Part shown: positions 31,001 through 59,291 of the stretch, one piece after another
Layout: each line of letters starts with the position of its first letter
Position numbering within the stretch: position 1 is the first letter of the stretch
NCBI GenBank assembly: GCA_951406725.2
Contig: OX597818.1
Span: 37,448,001 to 37,512,000 of the forward strand
Direction: 5' to 3'
DNA length: 64,000 nt
Origin: Octopus vulgaris
Lineage: Eukaryota
The notes under the pieces: model-generated
What the model was told of the DNA's origin: nothing
Seen by the model: only the letters and a program-made list of their open reading frames with translations
The model's database searches: none
Made by a program: the position numbers and the translations under genes

Positions 31001-33769
31001 TGGAACTCGGGTTGTGTGAAAAGTAATTATATCAAAATAAATATAATCAATGGAATACTTTCGAACATATAACATAGCAACTAGGACTTATTGCTTTATT
31101 TCTCCAAGTGTCAATCAAATACATACCCAAAGTATACTGGGGTTGGTTTAGCCGACTATACATTGGTCTACTAATCTGTGAATATTTGCGAATGTAAAAA
31201 AAATCCATTGGTTAGTCCAAGAAGATCAAAATATGCTGTATGTTTATATTATAATTAGTTATTGAGTGACCGTCTGCGTTTAAACTTGAACTCTTGATTT
31301 AGCAATATTAAAATGTTTGATTTCATTAACAGCTCTAGCATCATGTCAACGAGGGATTCTTTATGCATTTGTTCGACTAAATAGAAAATGGCTGCCAAAT
31401 CTCCCTTATATATCTCATATATATATATATATATATATATATATATATATATATATATAGTTACCGGGGTAGCAAAAAATCACACACGTAAAAAGGTTGT
31501 AACTACTTGTGTTCAAAGGTAGAAACTTCGGTTTTATGTATGTGTCGGAAGTAAAAGAATTTGAATAACACCTGCGTTTAACTCCATTTATATATATATA
31601 TATATATATATATATATATATACAGCCATACATATATGTATGTATTCGTGTGTATGTGTACATATGTGTATATGTATATGTACATATGTATGCATGTATA
31701 TATATATATATATATATATATATATATATATATATATATACATATGTATGCATGTCAATACACATGTATGCATGTCAATATATATATATATATCTACGAA
31801 TATATATAGGTATCTACGAATAGTAGTACCCTCAATATAATATAAATGAATATATATATATATATATATATATATATGCTGTGTGTCTGTGCTTATATAT
31901 ATATATATGCTGTGTGTCTGTGCTTATATATATATATACGACGGGCTTCTTTCAGTTTCCGTCTACCAAATCCACTCACAAGGCTTTGGTCGGCCTGAGG
32001 CTATAGTAGAAGACACTTGCCCAAGGTGCCACATAGTGGGATTGAACCCGGAACCATGTGGTTGGTAAGCAAGCTACTTACCACACAGCCACTTCTGCGC
32101 CTATTGAAAAACTATATGAATAGTTTTTCATTTAAAAATAGATGTAATACTAAGTTACTAAGTAAACCGTTTGCAATAACCGTTTGTTTACTTTTGCCAT
32201 CACCAGCACCCCTGTTACTACTACTACTACTACCACCACTATTATCATCGCCGCCGCTGCTGCTTTAGACAAAACTAACCTTTTAATGAATGAATGAATC
32301 ATTTCTAATTTTCTTTTCTGTGTATATTCTTGTTGCAGTTTTGCCTACGAAACAGAAGACATTTGTCAGCATTCTAAATGTAGATGAAGAGAAATATAAA
32401 AGCAAAAAAAAAAAGAAAAAATCTAGTCAACAGCTCACTGATTCAGTTGCTCTTCGCAGTGTATTTATATTTCAACGATATTACATATAATAAAATTTAA
32501 TATCTGGCTTTATTTGTGGTTGACGCATTTGAATGGCACATCCTTTCGTTGGTGGTCGGCGCTACGTTAATTATGCACAGGTCACTTGAATATTCACGGA
32601 ATTCTCACAGGAAAACCCATCCTAATCGCCAACATATACAGAGATACACACGGACAAGCAAATGCATTTACAGATATATATATGCACACATACACACACA
32701 CACACAAAACATCCCCCGGGATTATCCAAATCAGTTGCTAAGTAATAAATGTAATAAATTCATCATCTAATGATGAGCACACAAACATAACACACACATG
32801 CACACACACACACACACACACACACACACATAAACACACAAACGCACACAAACATATAGCATACATGCTCACACTCTCACACACACTCACACGCACATCT
32901 ATAATAATTGAAAATACACATTAAGTACAGGACATCACCGACGAGTGAAAAATACGTAAACACACAGAAATAAGTACAGGACAAAATACCAAAGGAAGCC
33001 TAACTCCTCCTCAGTTATCGACTGTTTATTACTACCTACAACGATGTGTGTGTGTGTGTGTGTGTGTGTGTGTGTGTGTGTGTGTGTGTGTGTGTGTATA
33101 GATTCAGATGAATATGGTACTTAAGTTGAGGCACCAGAATTTAGTATGGTATTATCCATCCAATTTCAAAATAAGGTGATTAAAATCAAAATGAGCAACA
33201 AGAATATCAAGAGGTAATGCGGTTCTATCGTTTCATGCGACTCCATTTAATTGAACAATGCAATCATTTTATTACATCATATATATATATATATATATAT
33301 ATATATATACATGTATATGCGTGTACATATATATATATATATACACATGTATATGCGTGTATATATATATATATATACACATGTATATGCGTGTATATAT
33401 ATATATATATATATATTTTTTTTATTATATAGAAGGAGATTCTACAGGACTAGTACTGTTTCATTCAAGAGAAATCTTCAGGAAGCTATTTAACAAGAAT
33501 TGTATTAGCATTTATACATTTAGGCAGGTTTAAAGGAGTGGTGGTGGGGGACTTTTTGGGGGTAGGCATAGCGCACTGTTTCCTTGGTGGGATAGTAATG
33601 TTCTTCAGGGAAGTGTCGAGGTCGATTCTTGTCAGCATTTTTCTTGGTGATGGTTATAAGGGCACTAGGGTGTGCTAAGATATGTAGGTCCCGGGTTGAT
33701 TCGGGGTTAACCACAGTAAGTAAGGTACTCAATACATAGCAGAGTAAAATTAATTTATTATATAGAAGG

Positions 33770-33820
33770 AGCTTCTACAGGACTAGTACTGTTTCATTCA
33801 AGAGAGATCTTCAGGAAGCT
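33770..33820 (-). ncRNA. Type I hammerhead ribozyme, representative of the about 20 minus-strand copies (unit 2)
   Basis: Consensus unit on minus strand: AGCTTC-CTGAAGA-T TTC TCTT GAA T-GAAA-CAG TACTAGTC CTG-TA-GAAGCT; stem I AGCUUC/GAAGCU, core CUGANGA and GAAA, stem III CAG/CUG, GUA cleavage triplet (this unit has one stem II variant). Confidence 0.8.
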
Positions 33821-36800
33821 ATTTAACAAGAATTGTATTAGCATTTATACATTTAGGCAGGTTTAAAGGAGTGGTGGTGGGGGACTTTTTGGGGGTAGGC
33901 ATAGCGCACTGTTTCCTTGGTGGGATAGTAATGTTCTTCAGGGAAGTGTCGAGGTCGATTCTTGTCAGCATTTTTCTTGGTGATGGTTATAAGGGCACTA
34001 GGGTGTGCTAAGATATGTAGGTCCCGGGTTGATTCGGGGTTAACCACAGTAAGTAAGGTACTCAATACATAGCAGAGTAAAATTAATTTATTATATAGAA
34101 GGAGCTTCTACAGGACTAGTACTGTTTCATTCAAGAGAAATCTTCAGGAAGCTATTTAACAAGAATTGTATTAGCATTTATACATTTAGGCAGGTTTAAA
34201 GGAGTGGTGGTGGGGGACTTTTTGGGGGTAGGCATAGCGCACTGTTTCCTTGGTGGGATAGTAATGTTCTTCAGGGAAGTGTCGAGGTCGATTCTTGTCA
34301 GCATTTTTCTTGGTGATGGTTATAAGGGCACTAGGGTGTGCTAAGATATGTAGGTCCCGGGTTGATTCGGGGTTAACCGCAGTAAGTAAGGTACTCAATA
34401 CATAGCAGAGTAAAATTAATTTATTATATAGAAGGAGCTTCTACAGGACTAGTACTGTTTCATTCAAGAGAAATCTTCAGGAAGCTATTTAACAAGAATT
34501 GTATTAGCATTTATACATTTAGGCAGGTTTAAAGGAGTGGTGGTGGGGGACTTTTTGGGGGTAGGCATAGCGCACTGTTTCCTTGGTGGGATAGTAATGT
34601 TCTTCAGGGAAGTGTCGAGGTCGATTCTTGTCAGCATTTTTCTTGGTGATGGTTATAAGGGCACTAGGGTGTGCTAAGATATGTAGGTCCCGGGTTGATT
34701 CGGGGTTAACCACAGTAAGTAAGGTACTCAATACATAGCAGAGTAAAATTAATTTATTATATAGAAGGAGCTTCTACAGGACTAGTACTGTTTCATTCAA
34801 GAGAAATCTTCAGGAAGCTATTTAACAAGAATTGTATTAGCATTTATACATTTAGGCAGGTTTAAAGGAGTGGTGGTGGGGGACTTTTTGGGGGTAGGCA
34901 TAGCGCACTGTTTCCTTGGTGGGATAGTAATGTTCTTCAGGGAAGTGTCGAGGTCGATTCTTGTCAGCATTTTTCTTGGTGATGGTTATAAGGGCACTAG
35001 GGTGTGCTAAGATATGTAGGTCCCGGGTTGATTCGGGGTTAACCACAGTAAGTAAGGTACTCAATACATAGCAGAGTAAAATTAATTTATTATATAGAAG
35101 GAGCTTCTACAGGACTAGTACTGTTTCATTCAAGAGAAATCTTCAGGAAGCTATTTAACAAGAATTGTATTAGCATTTATACATTTAGGCAGGTTTAAAG
35201 GAGTGGTGGTGGGGGACTTTTTGGGGGTAGGCATAGCGCACTGTTTCCTTGGTGGGATAGTAATGTTCTTCAGGGAAGTGTCGAGGTCGATTCTTGTCAG
35301 CATTTTTCTTGGTGATGGTTATAAGGGCACTAGGGTGTGCTAAGATATGTAGGTCCCGGGTTGATTCGGGGTTAACCACAGTAAGTAAGGTACTCAATAC
35401 ATAGCAGAGTAAAATTAATTTATTATATAGAAGGAGCTTCTACAGGACTAGTACTGTTTCATTCAAGAGAAATCTTCAGGAAGCTATTTAACAAGAATTG
35501 TATTAGCATTTATACATTTAGGCAGGTTTAAAGGAGTGGTGGTGGGGGACTTTTGGGGGTAGGCATAGCGCACTGTTTCCTTGGTGGGATAGTAATGTTC
35601 TTCAGGGAAGTGTCGAGGTCGATTCTTGTCAGCATTTTTCTTGGTGATGGTTATAAGGGCACTAGGGTGTGCTAAGATATGTAGGTCCCGGGTTGATTCG
35701 GGGTTAACCACAGTAAGTAAGGTACTCAATACATAGCAGAGTAAAATTAATTTATTATATAGAAGGAGCTTCTACAGGACTAGTACTGTTTCATTCAAGA
35801 GAAATCTTCAGGAAGCTATTTAACAAGAATTGTATTAGCATTTATACATTTAGGCAGGTTTAAAGGAGTGGTGGTGGGGGACTTTTTGGGGGTAGGCATA
35901 GCGCACTGTTTCCTTGGTGGGATAGTAATGTTCTTCAGGGAAGTGTCGAGGTCGATTCTTGTCAGCATTTTTCTTGGTGATGGTTATAAGGGCACTAGGG
36001 TGTGCTAAGATATGTAGGTCCCGGGTTGATTCGGGGTTAACCACAGTAAGTAAGGTACTCAATACATAGCAGAGTAAAATTAATTTATTATATAGAAGGA
36101 GCTTCTACAGGACTAGTACTGTTTCATTCAAGAGAGATCTTCAGGAAGCTATTTAACAAGAATTGTATTAGCATTTATACATTTAGGCAGGTTTAAAGGA
36201 GTGGTGGTGGGGGACTTTTTGGGGGTAGGCATAGCGCACTGTTTCCTTGGTGGGATAGTAATGTTCTTCAGGGAAGTGTCGAGGTCGATTCTTGTCAGCA
36301 TTTTTCTTGGTGATGGTTATAAGGGCACTAGGGTGTGCTAAGATATGTAGGTCCCGGGTTGATTCGGGGTTAACCACAGTAAGTAAGGTACTCAATACAT
36401 AGCAGAGTAAAATTAATTTATTATATAGAAGGAGCTTCTACAGGACTAGTACTGTTTCATTCAAGAGAAATCTTCAGGAAGCTATTTAACAAGAATTGTA
36501 TTAGCATTTATACATTTAGGCAGGTTTAAAGGAGTGGTGGTGGGGGACTTTTTGGGGGTAGGCATAGCGCACTGTTTCCTTGGTGGGATAGTAATGTTCT
36601 TCAGGGAAGTGTCGAGGTCGATTCTTGTCAGCATTTTTCTTGGTGATGGTTATAAGGGCACTAGGGTGTGCTAAGATATGTAGGTCCCGGGTTGATTCGG
36701 GGTTAACCGCAGAAAGTAAGGTACTCAATACATAGCAGAGTAAAATTAATTTATTATATAGAAGGAGCTTCTACAGGACTAGTACTGTTTCATTCAAGAG

Positions 36801-58960: not shown

Positions 58961-59040
58961 GCGACTCGCTGATGAAGCTGGCCTTAGCAAACATATTCTG
59001 TGTTTTGCTAGAAAGAAGCAGAAACCGCGGTACGAGTTGT
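58961..59040 (+). ncRNA. Type I hammerhead ribozyme with palindromic stem III
   Basis: gcgactcg CTGATGA [agct...tagcaaa catattctgtg ttttgcta...agca] GAAA ccgcgg TA cgagttgt. Confidence 0.82.
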
Positions 59041-59291
59041 TAAAGTTATCGGTAAACGTTTTTGATTTTCACTCTCGATAAATTCATCCCCTTTTTGTGT
59101 TCCCAGCACTCGGCATCTTTATTTAGGAGCCCTTAATTGTATAACTACATGAATAATATTTTTCTATATGAATAATTTTTTTGTCTTATGACTAATTCGT
59201 CTTTTGTGCCGGGCACCTGGTAGTAAATAATATTACTACCCTTCTTGTTTATATATATATATATATATGCATGTATGTTTGTATGTATATA

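Follow-up and report, generated by a model that had tools for sequence, protein, structure and literature searches.

The stretch of Octopus vulgaris DNA analysed here (the window) comprises 64,000 nucleotides (nt) of contig OX597818.1, positions 37,448,001 to 37,512,000 of the forward strand (GCA_951406725.2), in a genome of 2.8 Gb. It contains two loci in which short units, each with a predicted hammerhead ribozyme, are arranged as two opposed arms: locus A, built from a 333-nt unit, and locus B, built from a 445-nt unit. Both are almost certainly young Penelope-type insertions into (TA)n, and it is very likely that both cut target strands were primed on one RNA. Positions within units are numbered from the predicted ribozyme cut.

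The left arm of locus A (33421 to 39996, minus strand) consists of 19.8 units, with its 5' end at unit position 105, and meets the right arm (39997 to 41267, plus strand; about 3.8 units, starting at unit position 175) at a blunt inversion joint, 39996/39997. The RNA 3' end of the left arm, at 33421, corresponds to +22/+23 and is followed outward by a 4-nt A-run (33417 to 33420) and the TA-rich microsatellite that forms the left target flank (33279 to 33416; repeat scan and sequence). The right arm has its RNA 3' end at +96 and reads ...GACCTACATAT and then ATAT, which is common to element and flank; it ends at 41267, and (TA)n at 41268 to 41288 is the right target flank. Within this arm, TATAAA at -74 (40432 to 40437, plus strand) is a predicted promoter that is found in every intact unit A, 29 nt upstream of the 5'-end hot spot of the parent element (-45). 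It is followed by a minimal type I hammerhead motif (40461 to 40511, plus strand; predicted cut after the GUA at 40505) and by positions +1 to +201 of the parent (40506 to 40706, plus strand), with the start sites +23 and +96 and the first codons of an open reading frame (ORF; ATG at +138). At 40706/40707 (plus strand) parent +201 is joined to parent -133 with a 1-nt overlap, a junction private to this locus. The first unit past the inversion (40100 to 40330, plus strand) includes an opposite-strand piece and is rich in errors, with 90-95% identity compared with 99-100% elsewhere; these are likely sequencing or assembly errors in the palindrome.

Locus B is shorter. Its left arm (58144 to 58727, minus strand; 1.3 units) has its RNA 3' end at +111 and passes the predicted cut twice, at 58254 and 58699, and its right arm (58726 to 59254, plus strand; 1.2 units) ends at +222. 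The junctions read TATA followed by CAATTAAG at 58144-58148 and CTTGTTTATAT followed by ATAT at 59254; the left target flank is (TA)n at 58110 to 58147, of which TATA (58144-58147) is common to the element, and the right flank is the (TA)n sequence at 59255 to 59268, with TATAT common to arm and flank. A type I hammerhead motif with a long stem II, a 2-bp stem III and a palindromic CGCG loop lies at 58964 to 59037 (plus strand; predicted cut after 59032), with its mirror copy at 58250-58323 on the minus strand. A short repeat of AATTAAGGGTTTAGC with a period of 32 nt is found within (TA)n at 57275-57403, and bears only a faint likeness to the sequence around the +111 end of unit B.

The strands of the arms bear out the claim of an earlier, sequence-only reading of the window that in each locus the ribozyme-sense strands run apart from the inversion point. 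The three (TA)n junctions that it described are real, with shifted coordinates: 41261 is 6 nt short of the end at 41267, and 58146 and 59250 are read as 58144-58148 and 59254. The fourth end (about 33417-33421), which it placed in an AT-rich stretch, does have such a flank and is no exception; it is the usual +23 end of its family, and the same A-run form is seen in another locus (L119).

Both hammerheads were called from core motifs and stems, and their cleavage is predicted: CUGAnGA, GAAA, a GUA triplet and a closing stem I can be read in each unit, and an Rfam search recognised neither. The hammerhead fold of unit A is calculated at -7.8 kcal/mol, compared with -9.0 kcal/mol for the best fold, and the lowest-energy fold of the unit B monomer is without stem III. 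Tandem non-coding units of 150-450 nt, a type I hammerhead motif in each and a content of guanine plus cytosine below 50% are found in both A and B, as in the metazoan retrozymes that lack long terminal repeats (Cervera and de la Pena, 2020, PMC7229834; Li, Clavereau and Pollet, 2026, 10.64898/2026.07.22.740005; these and the papers below are cited for parts of their text).

The sequence-only reading had not recognised an autonomous parent. Unit A is composed of positions +1 to +201 plus the last 133 nt (-133 to +201) of a 5193-nt element, and is a 100% match to this coding parent. Two fetched parent copies (L067 and L084) hold an intact ORF of 713 amino acids (aa), with reverse transcriptase (RT) followed by GIY-YIG; it has 1180 homologues, mostly of about 700 aa. 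The ORF carries LDKTK (DKT), CNCPDKTTC (CxCX5C), CDLC (CxxC) and CMH (CxH), with no CCHH and with RWR in place of RWK. A Pfam scan of the ORF gave no RT match, NCBIfam gave a weak RT match only, and a PDB search left it unnamed. By the motif list of Craig et al. (2021; PMC8557442) the parent is assigned, from its predicted protein, to the Hydra clade of Penelope-like elements. The family shares with that clade a single ORF of RT and C-terminal GIY-YIG, a hammerhead, (TA)n targets, an inverted 5'-truncated copy and a tail at one end; it differs in its period of 5.2 kb, which reflects a long microsatellite-rich 3' untranslated region, compared with a length of less than 3 kb that is typical rather than absolute, in tails of 73 nt (A) and 111 nt (B) rather than 30-40 nt, and in the RWR motif (PMC8557442). 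Unit B shows no genuine similarity to the parent of family A.

Ordinary parent copies often begin at -41 to -45, 29 nt past TATAAA, and the -45 region presumably marks the RNA 5' end of the parent. Many family-A insertions are palindromes of about 210 nt, in which -45 to +23 is set against -45 to +96. One locus (L071:1-8561) carries full-length parent copies in tandem, with a period of 5193 nt and an ORF in two frames, split at a C-run, that is intact in L067 and L084. In a copy of an older subfamily (L089:4684-4995), +200 is joined to -44 with a few extra bases; this 3' boundary lies near the +201 of the private unit and could reflect a favoured 3' end of the RNA.

The organization of both loci recurs genome-wide. 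The ribozyme core of family A has 1977 exact matches, and the first 100 of these form 62 clusters, of which 31 are inverted with the RNA 3' ends outward ('-+'), none is '+-', 29 are single and two are complex. In the first 40 clusters fetched, 75 of 76 terminal 3' ends adjoin TA-like runs, compared with a background of 5.4% scored in the window by the same 14-offset rule. Of the 76 ends, 39 are of the short type, at about +23, and 37 of the long type, at about +96, and 32 of 33 adjacent minus/plus pairs combine one +23 end with one +96 end (p = 4e-9 against free choice); the lone exception is a garbled duplicate in L128. Family B, with 133 exact core matches, is a dispersed multi-locus family. 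Among 62 of its loci (22 from the best DNA matches and 40 from the pattern list, the window locus included), 30 are inverted, all of them outward, and 27 of the 30 pair one end at 81-137 (about +111) with one at 194-229 (about +222). A strict TA test is passed by 72 of 92 outer 3' ends of family B, and several of the failures are early stops at a variant. The outward polarity and TA flanks that the sequence-only reading had drawn from two loci hold in this wider tabulation; random polarity, non-TA flanks and ends fixed at the cut are not the pattern of the tabulated A and B loci.

Fold-back chimeras of long reads, or misassemblies, would also give inverted arms. The error-rich units directly beyond the inversion, in L062 as in the window, and the frequent small deletions in short palindromes that are unseen in the contigs of other runs, are of the kind expected from such artefacts. 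However, flanks and 3' ends differ between the two arms, and in contigs of other runs loose ends in TA appear at +96 and +23, together with a single head-to-head joint at -45. As these contigs show the same loose ends and joint, the outward polarity and the TA ends are not an assembly artefact, and we consider an origin of the arms in chimeras or misassembly extremely improbable.

Two fixed start sites per family set the ends of the arms. Three of the four main sites lie in alternating A/T runs of at least 4 nt, which span about 8% of each unit (p ~0.002, with only four sites). The sequence-only reading had stressed microhomology with the flanking (TA)n; TA-like overlap is indeed present at the junctions, at 0-5 nt, and is short and not decisive. 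It does not pick the site, because in family A the 2-nt site at +23 dominates while the 6-nt TATATA at +12 to +17 is rarely used (2 ends), and 11 family-B ends at +225 have zero exact overlap. The best fit to these data would be start sites that are fixed, with pairing that is short or imperfect.

The two arms of a locus resemble each other more closely than they resemble other loci. In the 22 of 26 inverted B loci that could be scored (the overlap being too small in four), arms differ by 0.29% within a locus and by 1.85% between loci, and they are identical in 15 of the 22, compared with 17% of other comparisons. This suggests that the two arms were copied from one template. Shared variants between arms would also result from self-priming fold-back, in which the first arm is made and the second is copied from it, as proposed by Arkhipova et al. 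(2013; PMC3846280), and perfect palindromes at an AGCT 4-mer at -45 (L102, L116, L119 and L138) are consistent with that route. Against it, neither arm is contained in the other in 10 of the 26 inverted B loci, and in at least six A loci (L107, L124, L125, L127, L132 and L136) the +23 arm extends further 5' than the +96 arm, so that one arm was not copied from the other; in most of the contained cases, moreover, the second arm begins far from the fold point. Fold-back is contradicted as a general route unless resection is invoked, and is highly improbable as the origin of these arrays. In four of the 26 inverted B loci (L038, L059, L162 and L175) the +222 arm halts at 140-191, before it reaches the start site at +111, as though the second polymerase stood in its way; three family-A loci (L065, L107 and L132) resemble B loci with an arm halted before the other start site.

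The template appears to have been continuous across the predicted cut. The arms of family B traverse it 120 times, in loci selected as having one crossing each, and 3 of 89 5' ends lie near it, compared with 4 expected if they were uniform. The sequence-only reading had noted that no end of the two loci coincides with the cut site, the left end of locus A lying some 20-25 nt past it (+22 by our count). Genome-wide, 151 family-A copies are without 1-4 nt across the cut (G+1 and/or G+4; for example L103:5844-5918 and L133:1088-1227), compared with 12 and 3 in two control windows. All eight such matches on C1 below 112 Mb sit in minimal palindromes of about 210 nt. The commonest of these deletions is spanned by no listed contig of four other runs, and the contigs there carry the base, although contigs show presence and not absence. 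An interpretation as scars of cleavage in vivo was set aside, since the deletions that were checked lie in short palindromes and the commonest form is unseen in the contigs of four other runs; they are probably long-read errors, if oddly position-specific ones.

The 333-nt unit is private to its locus. Its junction occurs in 24 exact copies in the genome, all at locus A, 20 on the minus and 4 on the plus strand. Two sister arrays, with units of 277 and 271 nt, have junctions of their own, each confined to a single locus and shared by its two arms; +23 and +96 are the outer ends in all three arrays. Their unit boundaries cluster at +183 to +201 and -83 to -133, in part because of the search design, and no fourth private array was found at the other gap sizes searched. 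Exact-pattern searches found no master copy of any of the three units in the assembly. Unit A arrays run past -45 and repeat one exact junction, and single jumps from -45 in linear copies land variously, several with extra bases (L070, L080, L085, L089, L090 and L093). Given the invariant junction, the passage of -45 and the lack of a master in the assembly, a one-off circle would be the simplest template. Back-splicing as the origin of the three units was rejected, as no donor/acceptor pair fits and the overlaps are 1, 0 and 2 nt. A second, minimal head-to-head family-A insertion in (TA)n directly adjoins the 271-nt array (L062:9143-9348).

The private junctions also bear on a model of satellite birth, in which an ordinary Penelope insertion is later reshaped by deletion, unequal crossing-over and inter-arm conversion (Li et al., 2026; 10.64898/2026.07.22.740005). 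Duplicated blocks of 7 and 10 units show that rearrangement at the level of the array has taken place, and part of the 20-unit length of locus A comes from a 7-unit block duplication. However, in each of the three arrays both opposed arms carry that array's private junction, and nothing of the parent beyond the unit was seen; the arms also meet within a unit, and their outermost ends are those of the primary +23/+96 pair. This model likely accounts for part of the copy number and not for the origin of the arrays, for which it is improbable. The rolling-circle copying put forward in the sequence-only reading is, by the same token, not the whole source of the unit number: as variants repeat at the spacing of unit blocks, the number of units is not a number of laps.

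The strict pairing of one short with one long end, the shared variants in arms that are not fold-back products, and the private units favour twin priming on one RNA. In the mechanism that we propose, a nuclease would nick both strands of (TA)n; one primer would begin at the short site of the family, +23 for A and about +111 for B, and its partner at the long site, +96 or about +222, aided by 0-5 nt of pairing. Both would be extended toward the RNA 5' end, and the two complementary DNA ends would then be joined with little or no overlap. On linear parental RNA both copies would halt near -45, giving palindromes of about 210 nt, while on a template without that 5' end they would pass the cut site repeatedly and produce multimers. 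Unit A would represent a one-off circle from parental RNA, in effect a newborn retrozyme, and unit B an established retrozyme; later block duplication would have lengthened some arms. Overall, we regard it as probable, if well short of secure, that a Penelope-like RT/GIY-YIG protein primed both strands on one RNA, probably a small circle in the case of the multi-unit inserts; the circular template that we infer behind the multimers is, taken by itself, somewhat favoured. The both-strand priming of the sequence-only reading is thus retained, and its circle stays at the level of inference. More tentatively, and with slightly more doubt than belief, we extend this scheme to Penelope-like elements at large: they may integrate by obligate asymmetric twin priming, in which a single protein complex would prime the two target strands at two fixed sites of the same RNA, and RNA fragments around the ribozyme (about -80 to -130 through to +180 to +200) may close into one-off circles that are copied by double rolling-circle reverse transcription, so that retrozymes would be born in one step as palindromic arrays.

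Several points weigh against this interpretation. The circle is deduced and ribozyme cleavage is a prediction, and ordinary linear family-A insertions share the same polarity without any circle. Gene conversion or assembly polishing between arms may inflate their similarity, and the junction searches used exact patterns and limited gap sizes in one assembly, so that a master copy may have escaped them. Variants come back every 7 units in the locus A array and at intervals of 10 and 2 units in L062, where one variant stands at the same register in both arms and its neighbours do not; periodic variants are impossible from a monomer circle, and block duplication or a multimeric template is therefore needed. 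Multi-unit genomic B arrays (L099, about 10 units) could supply linear read-through templates, and in vitro ribozyme cleavage is dispensable and uncleaved RNA is the main substrate (Frangieh et al., 2024; PMC11167929). The periodic variants, the B arrays and the in vitro preference are all in keeping with twin priming on a linear, uncleaved multimeric transcript of a master array in place of a circle. Set against that alternative are the lack, in the assembly, of a master for any of the three private units, and 5' ends in family B that have no single hot spot such as the -45 of family A; we consider it unlikely, while giving it more weight than satellite birth or fold-back. Small-circle joints over the parent stretch were not found in the contigs of other runs, and none of the runs listed as carrying the sequence is recorded as RNA; both results count neither way.

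Elsewhere in the window, inspection by eye showed decayed gag and protease frames (DTGA motif) resembling those of a long terminal repeat retrotransposon at 15722-17206 (minus strand), and fragments of endonuclease and reverse-transcriptase frames like those of long interspersed nuclear elements at 50030-53089.

When L1 elements insert by twin priming, each target strand primes on the same RNA molecule and an inverted arm is left behind; there the arms are free of overlap and the position of the second site is variable. In the present families, by contrast, the two sites are fixed and overlap between the arms is usual, so that strand displacement would be required. A biochemical parallel is the purified Penelope protein Poseidon PAc, which in vitro cuts and extends both strands of an AT-rich target and starts at two internal sites that set the tail (Frangieh et al., 2024; PMC11167929); its start site lacks homology to the DNA that is cut, whereas three of the four main sites here lie in alternating A/T runs, and the passages cited deal with neither inverted products nor circular templates. 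Head-to-head inverted 5' copies, one-sided tails and (TA)n targets have already been published for Penelope-like elements, and the origin of their tandem and inverted insertions has been named an open problem (PMC8557442). Retrozyme circles have been shown in other animals, with Penelope elements proposed as source and mobiliser (PMC7229834; 10.64898/2026.07.22.740005). Li et al. attribute the arrays to later local amplification, whereas unit A is a 100% match to a coding parent at one locus, and 8 of the 9 Xenopus dimers that they tested failed to cleave (10.64898/2026.07.22.740005). The word 'inverted' was not found in the main text of PMC7229834. The strict one-of-each pairing of ends, twin priming on a single template and private multimers were not found in the literature searched, and supplements such as Fig. 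S9 of PMC7229834 (a model of the retrozyme cycle) may bear on their novelty.

The origin of retrozymes from Penelope elements has been proposed and not shown, and the octopus genome provides a counted footprint: for each insertion one short end, one long end and one template, with no fold-back. With three independent examples of a newborn mini-unit, and with 713-aa ORFs that are naturally intact, both twin priming and rolling-circle copying become directly testable.

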